22,175 bases of DNA from a virus (taxonomy: Duplodnaviria > Heunggongvirae > Uroviricota > Caudoviricetes): IMG/VR virus record IMGVR_UViG_2534682074_000009, one strand, 5' to 3'. Below the pieces are notes generated by a model. The model saw only the letters and a list, made by a program, of their open reading frames with translations. It was not told the DNA's origin and made no database searches. A program made the position numbers and the translations under genes. Positions 1-10,549 of the stretch are shown piece after piece (position 1 is the first letter of the stretch; each line of letters opens with the position of its first letter).

Positions 1-981
1 TTATAACGTCACTCCGCCTTTTAGTGGATTCAGAGCGACGGCATTTTGCAGATAGTCAGGCGCAAGGTGCGCATAGGCCATCGTCTGCTGAATGCTCGCA
101 TGTCCCAGAATCTGTTGCAGTGCGATTATATTGCCCCCATTCATCATGAAATGGCTTGCGAATGTATGCCGCAGGATGTGGGTTGCCTGATTGGGTGGTA
201 TATCAGGTTTCACTCTGCGTAAAATCCCGCAAAATTTCTCATAATCAACTTTGAATAATTTGGCGCTGGCCTCCTCTTTAACTTTTTTCTCCAGTTCCTC
301 AGAAATCGGCACGGTTCGCTTTTTACCGTTTTTGGTTTTCAGGAAGGTAACCCTGCAATTTGTAATCTGTGCTGGTTTTAGCGTGGCAACTTCCGTCCAT
401 CTTCCTCCGGTGCTCAGACATAAAAGCGCGACAAGTAAGTCATCACCAGCCAAAACATTTAACAGTTTTTCGATTTCTGCTTTTTCCAGGAACGTCATTT
501 CAGGGTTGGCCTCCGCCAGTGGCGGCAGTCCGTGAATTGGGTGTTGCCCGGAAAATTCATCCAATTGAATTAATTTTGTGAACATGCCGGATAATCGGTA
601 CATGTCACGGTTTATCGTTGCGGCACTGATACCATCACGTAGTCGCATGGAACGATAATCCATCAAAGCCCTTTTGCTCATCCTGCTCACTGGTATATCA
701 CCTATGCCGCTGATGGTTTTGAGTAGATGATTAAACTCTTTTGTTCCATGCTCGTGGTTTTGCCCGTGATATTTCCACCAGATGTCCAGCAACTCACTCA
801 AAGTCCGGCGGTCTGCTCGCTGGCCTCCCCATTCTTTCTGACTGGCATTGGCGATTGTGTATCGCTCAAATGCTAGTGCTTCAGCTTTTCTTTCGAATTT
901 CCTGCGGATGCGTTTTCCGTCGCGACCGCGAGGTCTAATGTCCACTTCATAGCGACCATCATCGAGCTTCTTAATTGCCAT
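1..981 (-). CDS. int: Tyrosine site-specific integrase (P2 Int-like)
   Basis: Stop codon is at 1-3 on the reverse strand. C-terminal region carries tyrosine-recombinase signatures (HILRHTFASHF ... LGHASIQQTMAYAHL). N-terminus MAIKKLDDGRYEVDIRP resembles P2 Int as I recall it. Start at 981 is preferred because GGAGGG lies 7 nt upstream; the six-frame ORF extends to 1011 but has no SD there. Confidence 0.9.
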   Translation of the reverse strand: MAIKKLDDGRYEVDIRPRGRDGKRIRRKFERKAEALAFERYTIANASQKEWGGQRADRRTLSELLDIWWKYHGQNHEHGTKEFNHLLKTISGIGDIPVSRMSKRALMDYRSMRLRDGISAATINRDMYRLSGMFTKLIQLDEFSGQHPIHGLPPLAEANPEMTFLEKAEIEKLLNVLAGDDLLVALLCLSTGGRWTEVATLKPAQITNCRVTFLKTKNGKKRTVPISEELEKKVKEEASAKLFKVDYEKFCGILRRVKPDIPPNQATHILRHTFASHFMMNGGNIIALQQILGHASIQQTMAYAHLAPDYLQNAVALNPLKGGVTL

Positions 982-1050
982 AAGAAAGCCCTCCGGCGCT
1001 GTATTCACCATCTTGGTAGCAAATGGTGAAAATGTAATCTTTATATAGAG

Positions 1051-1344
1051 TTAGCCAATCCTTTTCGCGGAGTGGTTGGACTCTGTTGACTCTGGCCCAA
1101 TGTGCGCGAGAGCCGGTGCGATTTGTCCTGCGTCCGGCGCGGTTTTATCTGTCATAAGCCATAGAGCATATTTTTGGAATGTGGGATGCATAGTGATTTT
1201 TAGCAAAGCTGTGCCACCGGGTTCAAAGTTTCCTCCTTCATATTTTTTAAGTGTGCTTAGCGGTAACTCTATGATTTCACAGAATTTTGATTGGCTTAGC
1301 CCTTCAGCCTCACGCAAGGCCTTAATCTTTTCGCTTAATTTCAT
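1051..1344 (-). CDS. C: Immunity repressor (P2 C-like, HTH)
   Basis: 97 aa, immediately upstream of int on the same strand and divergent from cox. The C-terminal segment GQIAPALAH matches the P2 C repressor as I remember it; the N-terminal half has an HTH-like character. Confidence 0.8.
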   Translation of the reverse strand: MKLSEKIKALREAEGLSQSKFCEIIELPLSTLKKYEGGNFEPGGTALLKITMHPTFQKYALWLMTDKTAPDAGQIAPALAHIGPESTESNHSAKRIG

Positions 1345-1403
1345 TTGACATGGTGCCTATATAGGGACTAAATTCCCTCAAAACTGGAACCTATATAGGT
1401 TCC
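1345..1403. promoter_or_regulatory. Genetic-switch region: candidate early promoter Pe with two copies of a palindromic operator
   Basis: TTGACA at 1345-1350 with TAAATT about 18 bp downstream (1369-1374). The perfect palindrome CCTATATAGG occurs twice (1356-1365 and 1390-1399) flanking the putative -10; the second copy extends to GGAACCTATATAGGTTCC (1386-1403). Confidence 0.5.
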
Positions 1404-1480
1404 ATTGATTTGAGAATAAACCAGCATCTAAACGGTTTTGAGTGGTTTAGAAAGGGCTGGATCCTATGAGGGTACCATAT

Positions 1481-1753
1481 ATGGACGCTGAAAATTATGT
1501 GATTCAGTATCCGCTTGATGCGGTTCATGTGGATAAATTTGCTGATTTATTAGGGAAGCCAAAGACAGCCGTCAGTGAAATGGTGAAGGCAAATAAATTA
1601 CCAATTATTGAATTGCGTGATCCTTGCAAACCGAAGGCTCGTGCCGGTGAAAAATGGGTTTTCATTCCTGAGTTTAATCGCGCTGTACGTGAGGCGTTTT
1701 ATAACCGACCGGTTGAACAGCGTGATGCATGGCTTTTGTGGATGGGGTTGTGA
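1481..1753 (+). CDS. cox: Cox-like excisionase / switch regulator
   Basis: About 90 aa, first gene rightward of the switch. Motifs PIIELRDP ... GEKWVFIPEFN ... RDAWLLWMGL parallel P2 Cox as I recall it. GAGGG lies 8 nt upstream of the ATG at 1481; the alternative ATG at 1466 has poorer SD spacing. Confidence 0.8.
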   Translation: MDAENYVIQYPLDAVHVDKFADLLGKPKTAVSEMVKANKLPIIELRDPCKPKARAGEKWVFIPEFNRAVREAFYNRPVEQRDAWLLWMGL

Positions 1754-1755
1754 TT

Positions 1756-1926
1756 ATGAATGAGCCGCGTTGTATTGCTCAGTTATTGCGTAACGAAAGC
1801 CCCAGGGCGATTGACTTCACCATCACCCACGGTAAGGGGCGTAAGGGAATCATTATCCGCACCAAAAAACAGAGTCCGTTAAAAAAGGCTCTGACCTTTC
1901 TGAAAAGCCGGAGGGTATGGAAATGA
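1756..1926 (+). CDS. Small hypothetical early protein (P2 orf78 position)
   Basis: Short basic ORF (starts MNEPRC) whose ATG overlaps the cox stop; position only. Confidence 0.45.
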   Translation: MNEPRCIAQLLRNESPRAIDFTITHGKGRKGIIIRTKKQSPLKKALTFLKSRRVWK

Positions 1927-2423
1927 CAGTGATGACGCTCAATCTCGTTGAAAAACAGCCAGCAGCTATGCGCCGGATAATTGGCAAGCATCTTGCCGTC
2001 CCTCGCTGGCAGGATACATGTGATTATTATAATCAGATGATGGAGCGCGAACGGCTAACGGTTTGCTTTCATGCACAGTTAAAACAGCGTCACGCAACGA
2101 TGCGTTTTGAAGAAATGAACGACGTCGAACGTGAACGACTGGTTTGTGCAATTGATGAATTGCGTGGCGCATTCTCAAAACGCCGTCAGGTCGGCGCAAG
2201 TGAGTATGCATATATTAGTTTTTTAACAGTCAGTCAGCGTCGTACTTTATTTATGCATGCGGGATTGACAGAAAAAGAATTCAATCAGCCGTACTGGCGA
2301 ATTAATGAAGAATCATGTTACTGGCGTGATGCTTTATTCCGTGCATTACGTGAATTATTCAGTCTGTTTGAGTATGCACCGACAATTCTGACGTCGGTAA
2401 AACCAGAGCAATATCTGCATTAA
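1923..2423 (+). CDS. B: Replication protein B-like (position and size)
   Basis: 166 aa if started at ATG 1923, which has GGAGGG 7 nt upstream. Location after cox matches P2 gene B; I do not recognise the sequence directly. Confidence 0.55.
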   Translation: MTVMTLNLVEKQPAAMRRIIGKHLAVPRWQDTCDYYNQMMERERLTVCFHAQLKQRHATMRFEEMNDVERERLVCAIDELRGAFSKRRQVGASEYAYISFLTVSQRRTLFMHAGLTEKEFNQPYWRINEESCYWRDALFRALRELFSLFEYAPTILTSVKPEQYLH

Positions 2424-2444
2424 ATAATTAACCAGAGTTTTTAA

Positions 2445-2472
2445 CGCACTTAATCGTGCGGGGCTTCTTTTT
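2445..2472 (+). terminator. Possible weak intrinsic terminator after B
   Basis: Stem CGCAC / GTGCG with loop ttaatc, followed by gggcttcttttt; the T-run is not immediately adjacent to the stem. Confidence 0.3.
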
Positions 2473-2486
2473 GCCTGGAGAAAGTC

Positions 2487-2711
2487 ATGCATACAGTTTC
2501 TGAAAATCAGTGCGGTAAATACGCATTACTGCTGCAACAGGCCAGAACCGAAGCACAGGCCGACGCTGCGACGCGCTTTTCTTCTCATCTTGACGCCATG
2601 ATTCGCCACATCACAAAGGCGGAGTTATCCCGCGTGGAGATAGTTGAGCTGCTCAGTCAGGAGTCGGAAAAATTTCACAATATCGGATTGTCTCGCGGGG
2701 AGGTGCTTTGA
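2487..2711 (+). CDS. Hypothetical early protein (P2 orf80 position)
   Basis: 74-aa ORF in the compact early operon; AGGAG-like SD (ctggagaaagtcATG); its end overlaps the next ORF start. Confidence 0.55.
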
Positions 2712-3013
2712 TGTCCTGTTCTCGTTCGGTTGTATTACTGAATAACGCCTTAAAAATCGCCGTTATGAAAAATGGTGATTTGTCTCTTATTCAACTTGGT
2801 ATTGATAAAGAGAAGCGCGAAATAACTGAATCTGTTATCGCGATTTATCAGAGTGAATTAAACCTCCTGTCTGATGTGGTCAATTTACTTGTTAAACGCG
2901 CTGTATTCCACAAGCAAATTTCCTCAGTGGATGAACTGACAAAATTAACGACAGAACTCGCCAGTTATTGCGCTGATGAATTTAAGAAGCTGAACGACAA
3001 AAGGAGCTGGTAA
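2708..3013 (+). CDS. Hypothetical early protein (P2 orf81 position)
   Basis: 101-aa ORF, start overlaps the previous stop; AAGGAG lies before the following gene. Confidence 0.55.
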
Positions 3014-3237
3014 TGCCGGACAACGTGGATTTTATTCAGGAACAACAGGCTGAATTACTGGAGCGCCAGATTAACGCGGCAAGGGTAAAACATTGCGGTG
3101 TTTCTGCGCTGGTTTGCGAAGAGTGTGACGCGCCAATACCTGCTGCCCGTCGTGCGGCTTATCCGTCAGCCACGCGTTGTGTTTCCTGTCAGTCAGTCTT
3201 TGAAGCAAAAAACAAACATTACCGGAGAACGGCATGA
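3013..3237 (+). CDS. TraR/DksA-family C4 zinc-finger protein (P2 orf82 position)
   Basis: CEEC ... 17 residues ... CVSC (C-x2-C-x17-C-x2-C) in a 74-aa protein; AAGGAG SD directly upstream. Confidence 0.7.
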   Translation: MPDNVDFIQEQQAELLERQINAARVKHCGVSALVCEECDAPIPAARRAAYPSATRCVSCQSVFEAKNKHYRRTA

Positions 3238-3509
3238 GTATTCGTATTGAAATTGGCGAACGTTATGTCGTTACCAGTGACAGCTTTCAGTTTATTCTCC
3301 ACGAGAAAAAGAGAGCGGAAAGCGGTAAAAACGCCGGTCAGGAATGGCTGGCGGTGGTTGGTTATTACCCGAAATTAGGCCAGCTCGTTTCCGGCCTGAT
3401 GCATCACGATATTCTGACCGGAAGCGCAAAATCTTTTGCTGATTTAAACGCGCAGGTTGAGCAACTCAGCAAGCGTTGTTCAGAGGCTTTTGGCTCATAT
3501 GGCCGTTAA
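3234..3509 (+). CDS. Hypothetical early protein (P2 orf83 position)
   Basis: 91-aa ORF whose start overlaps the previous stop and whose end overlaps the gene A start. Confidence 0.55.
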   Translation: MSIRIEIGERYVVTSDSFQFILHEKKRAESGKNAGQEWLAVVGYYPKLGQLVSGLMHHDILTGSAKSFADLNAQVEQLSKRCSEAFGSYGR

Positions 3510-5775
3510 AGCCTCCGGGCGTTTTGTCCCTCCGTCAGCATTTACCGCAGGCACCGGTAAGGCGTTTACCGGTGCTTATGCATGGAACGCGCCACGCGAG
3601 GCTGTCGGGTGCGAAAGACCTCTTACACGTGACGAGATGCGTCAGGTGCAAGGTGTTTTATCCACGATTAACCGCCTGCCTTACTTTTTGCGCTCGCTGT
3701 TTACTTCACGCTATGACTACATCCGGCGCAATAAAAGCCCGGTGCACGGGTTTTATTTCCTCACATCTACTTTTCAGCGTCGTTTATGGCCGCGCATTGA
3801 GCGTGTGAATCAGCGCCATGAAATGAACACCGACGCGTCGTTGCTGTTTCTGGCAGAGCGTGACCACTATGCGCGCCTGCCGGGAATGAACGACAAGGAG
3901 CTGAAAAAGTTTGCCGCCCGTATCTCATCGCAGCTTTTCATGATGTATGAGGAACTCTGCGATGCATGGGTTGATGCGCATGGTGAAAAAGAATCGCTGT
4001 TTACGGATGAGGCGCAGGCTCACCTGTATGGTCATGTTGCTGGCGCTGCACGTGCTTTCAATATTTCCCCGCTCTACTGGAAAAAATACCGTAAAGGACA
4101 GATGACCACGAGGCAGGCATATTCTGCCATTGCCCGCCTGTTTAACGATGAGTGGTGGACTCATCAGCTTAAAGGCCAGCGTATGCGCTGGCATGAGGCG
4201 TTACTGATAGCTGTCGGGGAGGTCAATAAAGACCGTTCTCCTTATGCCAGTAAACACGCCATTCGTGATGTGCGTGCGCGCCGCCAGGCAAATCTGGAAT
4301 TTCTTAAATCGTGTGACCTTGAAAACAGGGAAACCGACGAGCGCATCGACCTTATCAGTAAGGTGATGGGCAGTATTTCTAATCCTGAAATTCGCCGGAT
4401 GGAGCTGATGAACACCATTGCCGGTATTGAGCGTTACGCCGCCGCAGAGGGTGATGTGGGGATGTTTATCACGCTGACCGCGCCGTCAAAGTATCACCCG
4501 ACACGTCAGGTCGGAAAAGGCGAAAGTAAAACCGTTCAGCTTAATCACGGCTGGAACGATGAGGCATTTAATCCAAAGGATGCGCAGCGTTATCTCTGCC
4601 GTATCTGGAGCCTGATGCGCACGGCATTCAAGGATAATGATTTACAGGTCTACGGTTTGCGAGTCGTCGAGCCACACCACGACGGAACGCCGCACTGGCA
4701 TATGATGCTTTTTTGTCATCCACGCCAGCATAACCAGATTATCGAAATCATGCGTCGCTATGCGCTCAAAGAGGATGGCGACGAAAGAGGAGCCGCGCGA
4801 AACCGTTTTCAGGCAAAACACCTTAACCGGGGCGGTGCTGCGGGATATATCGCGAAATACATTTCAAAAAACATCGACGGCTATGCACTGGATGGTCAGC
4901 TCGATAACGACACCGGCAGGCCGCTGAAAGACACTGCAGCGGCTGTTACCGCATGGGCGTCAACGTGGCGCATTCCGCAATTTAAAACGGTTGGCCTGCC
5001 GACAATGGGGGCTTACCGTGAACTACGCAAATTGCCTCGCGGCGTCAGCATTGCTGATGAGTTTGACGAGCGCGTCGAGGCTGCACGCGCCGCCGCAGAC
5101 AGTGGTGATTTTGCGCTGTATATCAGCGCGCAGGGCGGGGCAAATGTCCCGCGCGATTGTCAGACTGTCAGGGTCGCCCGTAGTCTGTCGGATGACGTTA
5201 ACGAGTACGAGGAAGAAGTCGAGAGAGTGGTCGGCATTTACGCGCCGCATCTCGGCGCGCGTCATATTCATATCACCAGAACGACGGACTGGCGCATTGT
5301 GCCGAAAGTTCCGGTCGTTGAGCCTTTGACTTTAAAAAGCGGCATCGCCGCGCCTCGGAGTCCTGTCAATAACTGTGGAAAGCTCACCGGTGGTGATACT
5401 TCGTTACCGGCTCCCACACCTTCTGAGCACGCCGCAGCAGTGCTTAATCTGGTTGATGACGATGTTATCGAATGGAATGACCCGGAGGTCGTGAGGGCGC
5501 TCAGGGGCGCATTAAAACACGACCGGAGAACGCCAAACCGTCAGCAAAGAAACGGAAGCCCGTTAAAACCGCATGAAATTGCACCATCGGCCAGACTGAC
5601 CCGGTCGGAACGATTGCAAATTACCCGTATCCGCGTTGATCTCGCTCAGAACGGTATCAGGCCGCAACGATGGGAGCTTGAGGCGCTGGCGCGTGGCGCG
5701 ACCGTAAATTATGACGGGAAACCTTTCACTTATCAGGTCGCTGATGATTGGCCGGGATTTTTGTTACCCATTTGA
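3499..5775 (+). CDS. A: Rolling-circle replication initiation endonuclease (P2 gpA-like)
   Basis: About 758 aa. Contains the histidine motif PHWHMMLF and the paired catalytic tyrosines in GYIAKYISK, characteristic of P2 A-type initiators. Start 3499 (MAVKASGRF) chosen within the longer six-frame ORF. Confidence 0.9.
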   Translation: MAVKASGRFVPPSAFTAGTGKAFTGAYAWNAPREAVGCERPLTRDEMRQVQGVLSTINRLPYFLRSLFTSRYDYIRRNKSPVHGFYFLTSTFQRRLWPRIERVNQRHEMNTDASLLFLAERDHYARLPGMNDKELKKFAARISSQLFMMYEELCDAWVDAHGEKESLFTDEAQAHLYGHVAGAARAFNISPLYWKKYRKGQMTTRQAYSAIARLFNDEWWTHQLKGQRMRWHEALLIAVGEVNKDRSPYASKHAIRDVRARRQANLEFLKSCDLENRETDERIDLISKVMGSISNPEIRRMELMNTIAGIERYAAAEGDVGMFITLTAPSKYHPTRQVGKGESKTVQLNHGWNDEAFNPKDAQRYLCRIWSLMRTAFKDNDLQVYGLRVVEPHHDGTPHWHMMLFCHPRQHNQIIEIMRRYALKEDGDERGAARNRFQAKHLNRGGAAGYIAKYISKNIDGYALDGQLDNDTGRPLKDTAAAVTAWASTWRIPQFKTVGLPTMGAYRELRKLPRGVSIADEFDERVEAARAAADSGDFALYISAQGGANVPRDCQTVRVARSLSDDVNEYEEEVERVVGIYAPHLGARHIHITRTTDWRIVPKVPVVEPLTLKSGIAAPRSPVNNCGKLTGGDTSLPAPTPSEHAAAVLNLVDDDVIEWNDPEVVRALRGALKHDRRTPNRQQRNGSPLKPHEIAPSARLTRSERLQITRIRVDLAQNGIRPQRWELEALARGATVNYDGKPFTYQVADDWPGFLLPI

Positions 5776-6033
5776 GTAAAAATACAGCGTGATTTTATAT
5801 GTCTTTGAATGGATTATGCGAAGCACCTCTAAGGTAGATGAGGAGCAATAGCGTGTTGAATCAGAAGGCTAAATTGTATTGAATCGTTAGCATGTAATTG
5901 AAGGCAGCTATTTGATTCGAGTCATAAAAGAGCATCTATTTCGGTTAATAAAACCATTGCGAGTGACTTTATGTCGAAGCATAATTCATCTCGAGCGAAG
6001 TCTTGCTAGTCTTTCATCGGATTGATGACGGGC

Positions 6034-6067
6034 GCAAAAAAACCACCCTGGCAGGTGGTTTTTTTGT
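6034..6067. terminator. Bidirectional intrinsic terminator
   Basis: Seven A (6036-6042), stem ACCACCCTG / CAGGTGGT, seven T (6059-6065). Can terminate plus-strand transcripts leaving A and the minus-strand mini-ORF transcript. Confidence 0.55.
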
Positions 6068-6077
6068 TTGAAGCATA

Positions 6078-6191
6078 CTAAAGAAAAATACTTACATGGA
6101 TATTACTGACGTTTACTGACAAACCACTCGGACTACCATATGGATAGCCAAAGAGGGCCAGAACGAGAATGCAGTAATAGCACTTCTTCAT
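6078..6191 (-). CDS. Candidate 37-aa hydrophobic small protein (MKKCYYCILVLALFGYPYGSPSGLSVNVSNIHVSIFL)
   Basis: Absent from the ORF track because it is short. Perfect AGGAGG 4 nt upstream of the ATG (reverse complement of 6196-6201); stop at 6078-6080 is directly followed on the minus strand by the 6034-6067 terminator. Hydrophobic N-terminal half. Confidence 0.3.
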   Translation of the reverse strand: MKKCYYCILVLALFGYPYGSPSGLSVNVSNIHVSIFL

Positions 6192-6847
6192 ATCGCCTCC
6201 TGTAAGCAGAGGGCAATTTCCGCCGATATATGCGCTTCTAAGGCGGAGTGACTATTGAGCGAAGTCTTGCCCTGAAATAATGCTCTGTTTAAACGCAAAG
6301 TGATCTGGCATATCACCGAACAGAGGACCTGAACAACACAACATATAGTATGTCGTTGTTTCTGGTTGCATTTTATGTTGTGTAATACTGGTTTTGCATC
6401 AAGGATGTTTGAGCTTTTTTTGATATAGCTCAAAGTAAAAAGCAGAGACTACGGATGATAAGGTCTTGAAAGCAATGTAAATTTTTTAAAGTTGTGAGTG
6501 GCTAGAAATGCACAGTTTCAATATGGCGGATTTAAACAAGTAATTAAAAATAGCGACATAAATTCAAATAAAATCATTAAGTTGCGTTTTCTGTGGAAAC
6601 TTCGGTGACTCTGAAATTTTCTTTTAGTGTCGCTGAGGTTTAACAACTCGCTGCGCAAGTAGTTAGTGTTTTTTTAATTCAATATTCTGATTTATAAGGT
6701 TTTTTATAAATCGTGGGCTGGTTGCGCGTATTCATCTCGTGTTATCAGCAAAGATAAGCTCTATATGCAGAACTGAATGCATATATGATGTCGAAAATGT
6801 TATGGGAAAACGTGGATTAGTGTTATAGTAATGGCTGAAAAACAGCC

Positions 6848-6907
6848 TTGACATAAAATAACAATTGTGATATGGCTGTGCATACTTAACTTTTTTAACG
6901 TAGGAGG
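6848..6907 (+). promoter_or_regulatory. Candidate sigma70 promoter and RBS for the metallopeptidase gene
   Basis: Consensus -35 TTGACA (6848-6853), 17-bp spacer, weak -10 TATGGC (6871-6876); AGGAGG (6902-6907) 5 nt before ATG 6913. Confidence 0.35.
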
Positions 6908-6912
6908 CAACC

Positions 6913-7398
6913 ATGAGCTATGCAGCTAAAAAACTGCTTGACCGCTATTGGGATCGCCGACTACCTGTCGATCCGTTTAAGCTTGCTAAAGCGTGGGGTG
7001 CTCGTGTTGAAGCACTTGAGGAATCGGCTTATAACAACGATGGGTTAAGCGGTCTGGCTGTCATCAAAAAGGGTGTCCATAGGATTTATTTTGATTCTAG
7101 TGAACATTCTAATCGTCAACGTTTTACTGTTGCACACGAGTTAGGTCATCATGTGCTGGGGCATACCCAGGACGGAGAGTACCATCGGGATAATGTCGGG
7201 AATTATTCAACAGGTGCTCGTGATTACCGTGAGGTTGAAGCAAACAAGTTTGCTGCTGAGTTGTTAATGCCTGAGTCTGCTATACGTCAATTGGTATCCA
7301 GAGAAGGTATTGATAGCACTTTGAGATTAGCAAGCATCTTTAATGTATCAGAAGCCGCTATGCATTGGCGCTTAAAGAGCTTAGGAATGGCTTATTAA
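6913..7398 (+). CDS. ImmA/IrrE-family (COG2856 / DUF955-like) zinc metallopeptidase, stand-alone
   Basis: 161 aa. HEXXH motif in FTVAHELGHHVLGH and the downstream EANKFAAELLMP signature typical of this family. Strong SD. No adjacent XRE/HTH partner ORF is visible. Confidence 0.8.
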   Translation: MSYAAKKLLDRYWDRRLPVDPFKLAKAWGARVEALEESAYNNDGLSGLAVIKKGVHRIYFDSSEHSNRQRFTVAHELGHHVLGHTQDGEYHRDNVGNYSTGARDYREVEANKFAAELLMPESAIRQLVSREGIDSTLRLASIFNVSEAAMHWRLKSLGMAY

Positions 7399-7425
7399 TT
7401 AGCCTTTAACTTTTAACCTGTTTAA

Positions 7426-7464
7426 AATCACCTTTACGTTTGTACATGTAAGGGTGATTTTTTT
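7426..7464 (+). terminator. Intrinsic terminator between the peptidase and membrane-protein ORFs
   Basis: 11-bp stem AATCACCTTTA / TAAGGGTGATT (one G-U pair), loop containing palindrome TACATGTA, then seven T (7458-7464) abutting ATG 7465. Confidence 0.5.
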
Positions 7465-8064
7465 ATGGCTGATATTGATTTATCTGGACAGTCCCCAGAG
7501 CAAGGAACCACTCCTAAGGGCGATTTAGATCCTGATATCCTTATAAGGCGAGATAGACGGGATGGTATAGAGCGTAGAAGTATGCGATTAGTGCTCTCTG
7601 CCGTTGTGCTTTGTTTTGCTTGTACATTTCTATGGCAGGGGCTTAACTTTGCTTTGGCTGTTGGAAATGGCTTGCTGGAAGCGAAAAGCAGTATTGCCGC
7701 AGCGATAACACAAAAAGTAGATACACAAACTTGTGTTTCAGCAGAAAAATGTTCTGCTTTATCTTCGGATCCGAAGATGGCTGATGAGAGGATAACACCA
7801 TCTTCAGACACTAATAAAGTTAGAAAATCTATTTCTGGTTTATCCACCGATTGGTTATCGGCCAGTTCTCTAATAGCTATTGTTGCATTCATCCTTGGTG
7901 TGGGTTTAACTTTGCTTTTGACTCTTCTTAAATCAGCATTTCAACACCCGACAGATAAAGACTTTAGAACAAAGTCGACATCTAATACTATTGAGTTGGC
8001 CACGCCAATCAGTGAATTAATAATTGGTGTTCTGAATATAATTAAAGACAAACTATCTAAGTAA
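7465..8064 (+). CDS. Predicted small membrane protein with two hydrophobic helices
   Basis: 199-codon ORF in AT-rich DNA. Two ~22-residue hydrophobic segments (LVLSAVVLCFACTFLWQGLNFALAV and LIAIVAFILGVGLTLLLTLL). Start uncertain (weak SD; internal Met at 7582 possible). Followed by the 8107-8139 terminator. Confidence 0.45.
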   Translation: MADIDLSGQSPEQGTTPKGDLDPDILIRRDRRDGIERRSMRLVLSAVVLCFACTFLWQGLNFALAVGNGLLEAKSSIAAAITQKVDTQTCVSAEKCSALSSDPKMADERITPSSDTNKVRKSISGLSTDWLSASSLIAIVAFILGVGLTLLLTLLKSAFQHPTDKDFRTKSTSNTIELATPISELIIGVLNIIKDKLSK

Positions 8065-8106
8065 AGCATTAGTTGTGATTTTTTATTGGTTTTAGTGATA
8101 ATACAT

Positions 8107-8139
8107 CTCCAGTACTTATTGTTACTGGAGAGTATTTTT
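8107..8139 (+). terminator. Intrinsic terminator in the convergent gap
   Basis: Stem CTCCAGTA / TACTGGAG (8107-8114 / 8123-8130), 8-nt loop, then agtattttt. Sits between the plus-strand membrane ORF and the stop of the minus-strand 313-aa gene. Confidence 0.45.
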
Positions 8140-8146
8140 AGTCGTT

Positions 8147-9088
8147 TTATATTTTTAATGTTAGTGAATGATATTCACGAGAGTTCACGTTCGATGTGAT
8201 GTAATCGGGGGCGTTAACACCAAGAATCGCAACGAGTAATCGGCAAATTAAAGCCTGCATTTGTTGTAATATGTCATCTCCATATTGATAATTGTTAATA
8301 GTGGTAAAGCCAAGTGGTTGACCATGAAACATAGCTTCATGAAAGTTTTCATTGCGGATGTTTGTAATGTTTTTTTTGCCTGTAACCCATGATGGTCGTG
8401 GTATTCCATAAGTTTTGCAGATCCACTTCAAGCGCCTGGAGTGATTTAGAGTCTTTTCTGTACACTTGTTCTTTTCTGCCCATGTTAAAGCAAAGCAACT
8501 ATCCAGTGCCATATAAAGATACTGGAATTTTTCGAAGCTAAGGTATTGTGGGTTTTGGGATAAAAATAGTGCATGCACTATTGCTGCTATATTTATTGGT
8601 GCGTGTTTGGTTTTTGTCTCGCTAGACATGTATTTGAGTGCTAATTCTATAACCTCTTTTTCAGAGCACTTGACCAGAATAAAGTCAGTTAATTTGCTGG
8701 GTTTTATTGGGGTTGCGTCTAAAAAACCGGCATCAGTAGTTGTTAATCTTATCCCTTTGAAAAAAGACAGACACCACACAGCAAAATTGAGAGTTTCTAG
8801 TGAAGATGTATTTTTTAATTTTAGTGAGTGTGTTTTGGGTAAACCAAATACTCGTTGGCTAAAAGGCATTGTGGATATGCCTCCATTGAGGTTATATACT
8901 TCTTGGTTTCCTGGGTATATCCAACCGTTAATAACATTTCTGTGATTGTTTATAAGATTTGTTTTTTCCGCTAGACCGGGTAAAGTAAGTAAAGAAAAAT
9001 CATCAGTTTCAACGTTAACTTCTACTGGATAGTATCCAAACTCAGCTTCAATATCATTGGATTGCTGTTCGTCAACTTTACCTTGCAT
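8147..9088 (-). CDS. Hypothetical 313-aa cargo protein; possible HEPN-like (R-x4-H) domain
   Basis: Long uninterrupted ORF in AT-rich DNA; GGAG 6 nt upstream of the ATG. Same orientation and position relative to cos that tin/old occupy in P2. Single motif R245-N-E-N-F-H250 in a predicted helical C-terminal half. No family confidently recognised. Confidence 0.7.
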   Translation of the reverse strand: MQGKVDEQQSNDIEAEFGYYPVEVNVETDDFSLLTLPGLAEKTNLINNHRNVINGWIYPGNQEVYNLNGGISTMPFSQRVFGLPKTHSLKLKNTSSLETLNFAVWCLSFFKGIRLTTTDAGFLDATPIKPSKLTDFILVKCSEKEVIELALKYMSSETKTKHAPINIAAIVHALFLSQNPQYLSFEKFQYLYMALDSCFALTWAEKNKCTEKTLNHSRRLKWICKTYGIPRPSWVTGKKNITNIRNENFHEAMFHGQPLGFTTINNYQYGDDILQQMQALICRLLVAILGVNAPDYITSNVNSREYHSLTLKI

Positions 9089-9326
9089 ACATTGCTCCGG
9101 TCAAAAATAGGCTCGATAATTCTCGTAAGCCTATCATGTTCGCAAAGTATCCATTCCTGTGGATTTTGTAAATTTAAGTTGATTTGTCATTAAATAAGCC
9201 GTTGCATGCAACAAGTGAATGTTTTTGCATGCGTCGGGGATGTCCGTTCAGGCTGCGTGCGGTCAGGACTGGTGCGGATCCATAGTATCTATGCAACTGC
9301 ATTAAAACCGCCCCATGAAGCGGGCG

Positions 9327-9345
9327 GGCGAGGCGGGGAAAGCAC
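9327..9345. other. cos site (19-nt cohesive-end sequence, P2-type)
   Basis: GGCGAGGCGGGGAAAGCAC matches the P2 cohesive-end sequence as I remember it, at the expected place between the cargo region and Q, followed by a G/T-rich packaging region (9346-9480). Confidence 0.55.
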
Positions 9346-9487
9346 TGCGCGCTGGCGGTGGTGCTGATTTTATTTTTTCAGCGTCTGAGCGCGTCGTGAA
9401 GGCGCTTAGTCTGCCCGTTGAGGCGTTGGTGTGTCTGCGGGGTGTTTTGTGCGGTGGTGAGCGTGTGAGGGCGTGATGACGGGGTGT

Positions 9488-9509
9488 AAAAAAGCCGCCC
9501 GCAGGCGGC
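9488..9509 (-). terminator. Intrinsic terminator downstream of Q
   Basis: On the minus strand: stem GCCGCC / GGCGGC with 4-nt loop followed by six T (six A at 9488-9493 on plus), 6 bp after the Q stop. Confidence 0.5.
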
Positions 9510-9514
9510 GATGT

Positions 9515-10549
9515 TCAGCCGTTGTCAGTGTCCAGTGAGTAGTTTTTAAAGCGGATGACCTCCTGACCGAGCCAGCCGTTTATCTCGCGGATCCTGTCCT
9601 GTAGCGGGATAAGCTCATTGCGGACAAAGACCTTTGCCACTTTCTCAATATCACCCAGCGACCCGACGTTCTCCGGCTTGCCGCCCATCAACTGAAAGGG
9701 GATGCGGTGCGCGTCCAGCAGGTCAGCGGCGCTGGCTTTTTTGATATTAAAAAAATCGTCCTTCGTTGCCACTTCACTGAGCGGGATAATTTTAATGCCG
9801 TCGGCTTTCCCCTGCGGGGCATAGAGAAACAGATTTTTAAAGTTGTTGCGGCCTTTCGACTTGACCATGTTTTCGCGAAGCATTTCGATATCGTTGCGAT
9901 CCTGCACGGCATCGGTGACGTACATGATATATCCGGCATGAGCGCCGTTTTCGTAATACTTGCGGCGGAACAGCGTGGCCGACTCATTCAGCCAGGCAGA
10001 ATTAAGGGCGCTGAGATATTCCGGCAGGCCGTACAGCTCCTGATTAATATCCGGCTCCAGCAGGTGAAACACGGAGCCGGGCGCGAAGGCTGTCGGCTCG
10101 TTGAAGGACGGCACCCACCAGTAAACATCCTCTTCCACACCACGGCGGGTATATTTTGCCGGTGAGGTTTCCAGTCTGATGACCTTACCGGTGGTGCTGT
10201 AACGCTTTTCCAGAAACGCATTACCGAACACCAGAAAATCCAGCACAAAGCGGCTGAAATCCTGCTGCGAAAGCCACGGATGCGGGATAAACGTTGAAGC
10301 CAGAATATTGCGTTTGACGTAAATCGGTGAGCTGTGATGCACGGCAGCACGCAGGCTTTTTGCCAGACCGGTAAAGCTGACCGGTGGCTCATACCATCTG
10401 CCGTTACTGATGCACTCGACGTAATCCAGAATGTCACGGCGGTCGAGTACCGGCACCGGCTCGCCAAAGGTGAATGCTTCCATTTTCGGGGCGCTGGCGG
10501 TGATTGTTTTTGCCGCAGGTCGCGGTGTTTTCCCTTTTTTCTTACTCAT
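9515..10549 (-). CDS. Q: Portal protein (P2 gpQ-like)
   Basis: 344 aa, first late gene next to cos on the minus strand, overlapping the P stop; size and position as in P2. Confidence 0.9.
   Translation of the reverse strand: MSKKKGKTPRPAAKTITASAPKMEAFTFGEPVPVLDRRDILDYVECISNGRWYEPPVSFTGLAKSLRAAVHHSSPIYVKRNILASTFIPHPWLSQQDFSRFVLDFLVFGNAFLEKRYSTTGKVIRLETSPAKYTRRGVEEDVYWWVPSFNEPTAFAPGSVFHLLEPDINQELYGLPEYLSALNSAWLNESATLFRRKYYENGAHAGYIMYVTDAVQDRNDIEMLRENMVKSKGRNNFKNLFLYAPQGKADGIKIIPLSEVATKDDFFNIKKASAADLLDAHRIPFQLMGGKPENVGSLGDIEKVAKVFVRNELIPLQDRIREINGWLGQEVIRFKNYSLDTDNG

Follow-up and report, generated by a model that had tools for sequence, protein, structure and literature searches.

Positions 5776-9326 of the 22,175-nucleotide (nt) Caudoviricetes record IMGVR_UViG_2534682074_000009 (that whole stretch is hereafter termed the window) lie in a P2-like (Peduovirus) prophage and constitute its gpA-cos-gpQ hotspot for accessory genes, in which the inserted cargo is composed of two independent, horizontally shuffled modules. 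Module 1 pairs an ImmA/IrrE-type (M78) zinc metallopeptidase with a membrane protein of two transmembrane (TM) helices, the 2-TM protein. Module 2 is a single protein of 313 amino acids (aa), open reading frame (ORF) 313, the C-terminal domain of which is probably a HEPN domain. The explanation favoured here, with somewhat better than even confidence, is that both modules would act in abortive infection or exclusion, the first as a protease-controlled membrane effector and the second as a sensor-gated HEPN ribonuclease (RNase).

The gpA-gpQ hotspot and its two modules

The features of the interval and its flanks are as follows.

3457/3499-5775: gene A (replication endonuclease, 772 aa) in the ORF list; left border of the slot
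5776 to approximately 6618: backbone spacer of this P2-like lineage, not inserted cargo, from comparison with empty sites; 38% G+C
6037-6067, both strands: bidirectional intrinsic terminator at which both the early operon (gene A) and the minus-strand mini-ORF end; A/U-flanked stem of 14 bp, -19.5 kcal/mol
6078-6191, minus strand: hydrophobic mini-ORF of 37 aa (MKKCYYCILVLALFGYPYGSPSGLSVNVSNIHVSIFL); AGGAGG lies 5 nt upstream of the ATG
Approximately 6619-9173: inserted cargo proper, two modules in approximately 2.55 kb, from the same comparison; 38% G+C
6848-6876, plus strand: probable promoter of the peptidase operon, TTGACA (6848-6853), 17 nt and TGaTATGGC (extended -10), read by eye
6913-7398, plus strand: ImmA/IrrE-type zinc metallopeptidase, 161 aa, M78 domain only, HELGH at residue 75
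7424-7464, plus strand: terminator-like hairpin with U7, ending at the AUG of the 2-TM gene; -20.9 kcal/mol, z = -4.5
7465-8064, plus strand: 2-TM membrane protein, 199 aa, phrog_8096 (function unknown)
8106-8131, both strands: bidirectional terminator that separates the 2-TM gene from the convergent ORF313; 9-bp stem on both strands, fold z = -3.0
8147-9088, minus strand: ORF313, stand-alone, 313 aa; beta-rich N-terminal domain (approximately residues 1-140) and HEPN-like helical C-terminal domain
9327-9345, plus strand: P2 cos 19-mer, an exact match to GGCGAGGCGGGGAAAGCAC; right border of the slot
9515-10549, minus strand: portal gene Q, right of cos

The interval is placed between gene A and cos/Q of a P2-like genome, the window outside it being 97% identical to P2-type phages across 79-84% of its length, and the cos 19-mer is also present in the cos-proximal fragments cloned by Rousset 2022. 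The gpA-gpQ segment is a variable hotspot of P2, holding old and tin in P2 itself and diverse defence cargo elsewhere, and for this locus, as a defence hotspot, 1,650 arrangements have been described (Rousset 2022, PMC9122126). A first-pass annotation, made from the sequence of the window, had proposed cargo in this variable P2 site, in DNA more AT-rich than the core and free of P2 core genes, and had described the mini-ORF, the peptidase, the 2-TM protein and ORF313. All of these points held: the flanks are gene A, cos and Q, no P2 core gene is among the genes of the interval, and the four ORFs are present in the ORF list as described. Gene A has a G+C content of 53.7% and the window to the right of cos one of 56.8%, whereas that of the interval is 38.7%; the sliding profile falls from 0.52-0.57 in gene A to 0.35-0.42 at approximately 5750-9250 before rising to 0.53-0.63 further right. 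A second, milder low-G+C stretch (42-49%) was noted in the integrase, repressor and early region at positions 1-3250. The P2 reference yielded no nucleotide match within the interval, and none of the five island ORFs scanned with PADLOC matched Old or Tin. Otherwise collinear relatives carry either an empty site or, at four further loci, other cargo. The hotspot is reportedly the same as the 'TO region' of Nilsson/Odegrip and Haggard-Ljungquist.

The boundaries of the cargo were defined by comparison with two P2-like prophages of Escherichia coli, M15 and 504838, which have no annotated genes between A and Q, only the spacer and cos. E. coli M15 aligns to window positions 5700-6536 and then continues straight to 9203-9560, while E. 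coli 504838 aligns to 5700-6618 and then to 9174-9560; the cargo-less intervals occupy positions 2278-3360 of the M15 locus (L021) and 4501-5677 of the 504838 locus (L022). Since the left 0.76-0.84 kb (5776 to approximately 6618) is also found in P2-like prophages without any cargo gene, it is spacer. Among 5,426 complete E. coli genomes, 150 contain its first 765 nt, in most cases with no cargo. The 3.5 kb had been regarded in the first-pass annotation as a single cargo island, a view that must be abandoned, as the left part is spacer and the remainder comprises two modules that occur independently. A 2026 survey stated that empty P2 hotspots were never observed (PMC13586616); the disagreement with the empty sites reported here probably comes down to gene calling, in which the mini-ORF or spurious small ORFs may or may not be counted.

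Within the spacer, conservation is highest at 6025-6375, where 86-96% of the columns are invariant in copies that are otherwise approximately 80% alike. The mini-ORF falls within this conserved core and belongs to the spacer rather than the cargo. It is open in all five copies compared, with three variable residues, whereas an overlapping 81-aa ORF is broken in one copy. The terminator at 6037-6067 is invariant in five diverged copies and has a folding z of -2.9. The sequence of the mini-ORF was found on approximately 1000 contigs and is unannotated in RefSeq, appearing as 'hypothetical protein' in a few records (E. coli W, and phage MET_P1_103_31, OQ383618, which is nearly identical to the present one). 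It is signal-peptide-like or toxin-like, and its product could be a type I toxin or else a small peptide, either secreted or in the membrane. An Rfam scan of the island gave only sub-threshold, chance-level matches. In E. coli CUPS TF 6/1_01, the prophage of which is degraded with truncation of both the integrase and gene A, the spacer is interrupted at the equivalent of window position 6398 (approximately) by the IS4-family element ISVsa5 (L023 5139-6347).

The independence of the two modules is evident from their separate occurrence. P2 isolate DC1 is 84% identical to the left part of the interval as far as the peptidase gene extends, and then has a 2-TM gene that is shorter and divergent, without ORF313. 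Conversely, P2-EC67 carries an ORF313 approximately 80% identical at the DNA level next to a gene termed ORF226, and further ORF313 alleles, approximately 78% identical, stand alongside DinI-like or DUF2158 cargo. Alleles of at least 99% identity do occur together in complete E. coli genomes, with 46 full-length copies compared with 47 of each part; these 46-47 genomes represent one haplotype spreading and provide no evidence of functional coupling. For each cargo protein, the sequence was found on some 1,000 contigs or more from E. coli and Salmonella.

Both modules are present, as separate systems, in the published catalogue of the hotspot. System #11 of Table S5B is ORF313 with one substitution, no Pfam domain and 218 occurrences, while system #21, with 148 occurrences, is listed as 'Peptidase_M78' and '2 TM in protein 2', its protein 1 being identical to the peptidase of the window; Table S5A contains the arrangement 'Peptidase_M78 + hypothetical + hypothetical' (Rousset 2022, PMC9122126). 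The three-gene '3HP' system of the same study was considered and rejected, as it was described without clear domains whereas the peptidase has a clear M78 domain, and as the present genes were catalogued separately as #11 and #21. The cargo resembles other entries of the catalogue in its position between gene A and cos/Q and in being an AT-rich mosaic with its own expression signals; it differs in lacking any old or tin homologue and in standing outside the entries validated by a phenotype. The earlier statement that the cargo corresponds to no nameable system was confirmed, there being no match to a named, validated system and the PADLOC matches being confined to the M78 domain of the peptidase. 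All that came from PADLOC, NCBIfam, Pfam and PHROGs was this domain and two PHROGs of unknown function, and the RefSeq accessions of the cargo proteins were absent from the main texts of the literature searched.

Of the 25 complete E. coli chromosomes that matched best, at least 10 have a database record that opens exactly with the start codon of the prophage gene A, the island being at positions 2278-5828 (e.g. NZ_CP062865.1, 1-2277). These assemblies were apparently rotated onto the prophage 'replication' gene instead of dnaA.

The M78 peptidase and its membrane partner

The peptidase matched Pfam PF06114 with an E-value of 3.8e-21 (75.6 bits, cut-off 22) and is thus a member of the M78 family. 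The HELGH motif and the downstream EANKFAAELLMP motif (ExxANxFAxxLLMP, supplying the Glu) are intact, and the protein contains no cysteines. It corresponds to phrog_87 (metallo-protease) and to RefSeq WP_000119270, 'ImmA/IrrE family metallo-endopeptidase'. Matches to models of known defence proteins were restricted to the peptidase domain: the PADLOC capP model (1.1e-30) was covered only at positions 8-153 of 242, fifteen RmrA models (6e-17 to 5e-7) were matched through their C-terminal M78 part (e.g. 146-267 of 363), and PADLOC PD-Lambda-2_B models were matched by the peptidase domain only.

The zinc-peptidase domain, with HEXXH and a downstream Glu (PF06114, COG2856), is shared with the protease-repressor switches ImmA/ImmR, IrrE/DdrO and CapP/CapH. 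CapP and IrrE have additional helix-turn-helix (HTH) and GAF domains and bind single-stranded DNA, and CapP, of approximately 290 aa, has a cysteine switch (PMC13228613). The peptidase of the window differs from CapP in consisting of the peptidase domain only, in 161 aa without cysteine. Its neighbour is a 2-TM protein, where those of the switches are XRE repressors, and as 5776-9326 contains no HTH ORF, an ImmA/ImmR or CapP/CapH switch is not present. Among the Xre-COG2856 defence pairs, Rosmer resembles module 1 through the M78 match to RmrA and in having a two-gene, toxin-antitoxin-like layout in defence islands. RmrA is nevertheless an HTH-M78 fusion of 360-400 aa paired with RmrT, whereas the present module has no HTH and no RmrT match, and a true Rosmer pair stands as a separate system next to the Serratia homologue of module 1.

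The 2-TM protein begins with a low-complexity cytoplasmic tail, which remains in frame across homologues, followed by TM1, a variable periplasmic loop with two Cys, TM2 and a conserved amphipathic C-terminal helix. In the homologue alignment, TM2 (AFILGVGLTLxLTLLK) is invariant across Enterobacterales, Vibrio and Acinetobacter. The family is small, with 53 homologues, and in every locus examined the 2-TM gene lies directly 3' of a gene for an M78 peptidase of 161-164 aa. These loci, with identical spacing of the pair, are on an Enterobacter plasmid, in the chromosome of a Serratia (between phn and nrdD) and, with recombinases on its flanks, in an island of Vibrio harveyi. Peptidases of 37-47% identity, from Comamonas, metagenome-assembled genomes (MAGs) assigned to Desulfovibrionaceae and Parasutterella, another MAG of an uncultured bacterium and Hymenobacter, are followed by an abutting or overlapping ORF of 121-157 aa with two predicted TM helices. 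With these predicted 2-TM proteins included, the pairing with an M78 peptidase extends from Enterobacterales to Bacteroidota. Among peptidases more distant still, the classical HTH gene upstream takes the place of the 2-TM partner.

The three intrinsic terminators noted in the first-pass annotation were recovered at 6037-6067, 7424-7464 and 8106-8131, and the interval contains eight terminator-like sites where 3.6 ± 1.8 were expected. Its claim of dedicated promoters was upheld in part: matches to consensus promoters were not enriched (12 compared with 10.2 ± 2.7 in shuffled sequence), but one good promoter was recognised by eye before the peptidase gene. This probable promoter stands 36 nt upstream of the gene and was missed by the consensus scan because its -10 hexamer ends in C. 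LexA-box-like sites were not enriched, and none was found at the peptidase promoter, leaving control by the SOS response unsupported. The claim of strong ribosome-binding sites likewise holds for the mini-ORF, with its AGGAGG, and fails for the 2-TM gene, which has no free Shine-Dalgarno sequence.

The Shine-Dalgarno sequence of the 2-TM gene, AAGGGUGA, is paired in the 3' arm of the hairpin at 7424-7464. Between the two genes, the gammaproteobacterial loci have a gap of approximately 66-74 nt, in which the hairpin and its U-run end 0-2 nt before the AUG, with the Shine-Dalgarno sequence paired. A hairpin occurs at the same position in four loci (the window, Serratia (L014), the Enterobacter plasmid (L018) and Vibrio (L016)), the stems differing in sequence among the window, Serratia/Enterobacter and Vibrio, with z = -3.6 to -4.7. 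The comparison shows a conserved structure that is predicted to act as a brake on the membrane gene. Such a brake may exist because the 2-TM protein is harmful.

ORF313, a candidate HEPN protein

ORF313 contains the motif R245-N-E-N-F-H250 (R-N-x3-H), which conforms to the conserved Rx4-6H motif of the HEPN superfamily. Across 23 sequences, down to 26% identity, R245 and H250 do not vary, and N246 hardly varies. Further invariant polar residues are found at P-x-T-H87, E186, H216/R219 and R283, while the GFLDAT sequence containing D124 is invariant in the closer homologue set only. The motif, which lies in the helical C-terminal domain, makes a HEPN assignment likely, and H87 and D124 hint at a second functional site in the N-terminal domain.

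The family is large (603 homologues, and 651 cluster representatives at 50% identity, were found, mostly of approximately 300 aa) and ranges over Enterobacterales, Aeromonas, Acinetobacter, Pseudomonas and Stenotrophomonas. Homologues are solitary in islands of P. aeruginosa and in an Aeromonas chromosome.

The protein differs from the HEPN RNases compared (Csm6/Csx1, the C-terminal HEPN of AbiA, AbiV, MNT-HEPN toxins and ApeA) in that no HEPN model of Pfam or PADLOC matches it, and in having a beta-rich N-terminal domain of approximately 140 aa without an identified relative and no CARF, MNT or other known regulator attached. HEPN_Apea (PF18739) and Gao_Ape ApeA models, searched at E <= 1-10, matched neither ORF313 nor 27 homologues nor 10 divergent cluster representatives; the single pointer to ApeA is the UniRef label of one homologue. 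Sequence comparison of ORF313 with the Protein Data Bank (PDB) gave only chance-level matches to ribonucleotide-reductase R2 and was discarded. DS-40 of DefensePredictor (311 aa, with a weak HEPN label) was also considered as a possible equivalent and rejected, the sequences being unrelated.

Defence and the competing explanations

According to the favoured explanation, each module would have signals of its own for expression in the lysogen. A two-gene operon is envisaged for module 1 (6913-8064), in which the minimal peptidase is made in excess while synthesis of the 2-TM protein is throttled by the terminator-like hairpin that sequesters its Shine-Dalgarno sequence. Proteolysis by the peptidase would control the 2-TM protein, which would thereby be either activated or held harmless; upon a phage cue, the 2-TM protein would oligomerise through its invariant, glycine-rich TM2 and the membrane would collapse, resulting in abortive infection or exclusion. 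Module 2 would be a single-protein system in which the sensor-like N-terminal domain gates the C-terminal HEPN ribonuclease (R-N-x3-H), cleavage of RNA by the latter aborting the infection. There is precedent for pore-forming defence effectors licensed by a protease (Evans et al. 2025). The gasdermin, Pepco and EACC1 systems resemble module 1 in logic only, that is, in a protease gene beside a small, non-enzymatic, membrane-active protein. Their proteases are serine or cysteine enzymes fused to sensors and their effectors are soluble until cleaved, whereas module 1 has an M78 metallopeptidase without a sensor and a constitutive 2-TM partner, and no sequence relation was found.

Circumstantial evidence for a defensive role was found in the genomic neighbourhoods of both modules. 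In Serratia nevei, 1.8 kb separate a copy of module 1 from a complete Rosmer RmrT/RmrA pair (L014 7463-9246), the copy on the Enterobacter plasmid stands beside a ShosA-like gene (L018 761-1321; 186 aa, matching the C-terminal two-thirds of the model only), and a P. aeruginosa homologue of ORF313 lies 3 kb from GajA with a UvrD-like neighbour (L004 9984-12960). WP_001161722.1, the RefSeq accession of ORF313 on a 100%-identical E. coli locus, received mean log-odds of 9.68 from DefensePredictor, where it is classed as a 'predicted novel defense gene'; it appears in none of the searchable screening or validation tables of that paper. We consider it likely that module 2 is defensive, and judge the chances for module 1 to be evenly balanced.

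Several observations weigh against this explanation. Neither ORF313 nor its divergent relatives matched any Pfam, NCBIfam or PADLOC model, Foldseek searches of ORF313 against PDB and BFVD were empty, and the loop bearing its motif (residues 246-260) was modelled at a predicted local distance difference test (pLDDT) score below 50. The AlphaFold 2 model of the 2-TM protein was poor, helical only and with a pLDDT of 64, and the distant 2-TM partners have no detectable sequence similarity to that of the window, sharing only the architecture. Cargo of the P2 hotspot is not all defensive, since partition systems and toxins occur too, and a homologue of module 1 that was cloned as pFR104 in the only experiment with a relative ('Peptidase + TM', the whole A-Q interval of E. 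coli TA280 with native promoters, on an eight-phage panel) is listed under 'additional tested systems' and not among the validated ones (Rousset 2022, PMC9122126). The plasmid and phage-panel assay suggested in the first-pass annotation had already been carried out for the peptidase and TM protein, on a homologue with 88% and 54% identity, respectively, to those of the window, and it did not place the pair among validated systems. This negative is a weak one because the panel consisted of eight phages only; in a later study of the sister P4 hotspot, six of eight randomly chosen unknown cargos were protective when challenged with 28 phages.

The pFR104 result and the mixed content of the hotspot are also the points from which a non-defensive role would be argued, in which one or both modules are selfish, toxin-antitoxin-like addiction cargo or serve host physiology, have no anti-phage activity and are kept for stabilisation of the prophage or merely carried along in the hotspot. 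The operon layout of module 1, with the first gene in excess and the second throttled, resembles that of a type II toxin-antitoxin system, and the single haplotype described above means that the co-occurrence of the modules reflects descent and not selection for their pairing. Against such a role, both modules adjoin bona fide defence systems in unrelated genomes (Rosmer, the ShosA-like gene and Gabija), ORF313 scores highly in DefensePredictor, and the narrow phage panel, when set beside the P4 cargos, deprives the pFR104 result of much of its force. We rate a non-defensive role as rather unlikely. A single three-gene system, in which peptidase, 2-TM protein and ORF313 would act jointly, for example by proteolytic activation of the HEPN protein, would account for the allele set being nearly always together in complete E. 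coli and for the Table S5A arrangement cited above. It is very improbable, given that divergent ORF313 alleles occur without the pair and the pair without ORF313, that ORF313 homologues are solitary in Pseudomonas and Aeromonas, that the 2-TM gene and ORF313 converge on a bidirectional terminator, and that the curators of the catalogue split them into two systems.

A role in the control of lysogeny was also considered, in which an ImmA-like anti-repressor protease responds to stress by cleaving P2 C or else a repressor belonging to a competing or co-resident prophage, thereby rendering the prophage inducible or manipulating other prophages, with the 2-TM protein serving in superinfection exclusion. 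All characterised M78/COG2856 peptidases (ImmA, IrrE and CapP) cleave an XRE-type repressor, 161 aa is an ImmA-like size, and the 186-type relatives of P2 encode the SOS-controlled antirepressor Tum towards the right end of the genome. However, the cargo has no HTH gene and the conserved partner of the peptidase is a 2-TM protein instead of a repressor; the pair is also found outside prophages, on a plasmid and in the Serratia chromosome, and the LexA-box results give no indication of SOS control. Taken together, these data render a function in lysogeny control improbable, and a defensive function of both modules remains the favoured explanation. A bolder form of the defensive explanation holds that the M78 and 2-TM pair is the founding member of a phylum-spanning class of 'metalloprotease-gated membrane effector' modules, in which an ImmA-like protease has exchanged an XRE repressor for a membrane protein as its target, the latter being dosed down by the conserved, Shine-Dalgarno-sequestering terminator, that ORF313 represents a new HEPN family with its beta-rich N-terminal domain as phage sensor, and that the negative result of pFR104 is due to the narrow panel or a missing trigger. 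We put this joint claim forward tentatively, as a possibility well short of an even chance.

As a genomic feature the interval is already known, because the hotspot, the cargo proteins and even a cloning test (on a homologue) have been published. What the present comparison of sequences adds is a corrected cargo boundary, the assignment of the mini-ORF to the backbone, the apparent pairing of M78 peptidases with 2-TM proteins across phyla, a conserved hairpin predicted to sequester the Shine-Dalgarno sequence and the putative HEPN reading of ORF313. In practical terms, two abundant orphan cargos of E. coli P2 hotspots, with 148 and 218 occurrences, have been pinned down. The occurrence of the M78 and 2-TM pair across phyla, together with the conserved brake, suggests a second, non-repressor class of partner for ImmA-type proteases. 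If this is true, the known repertoire of protease-controlled immune effectors would be widened. With ORF313, a single-gene HEPN system spread broadly among Gammaproteobacteria would be added.

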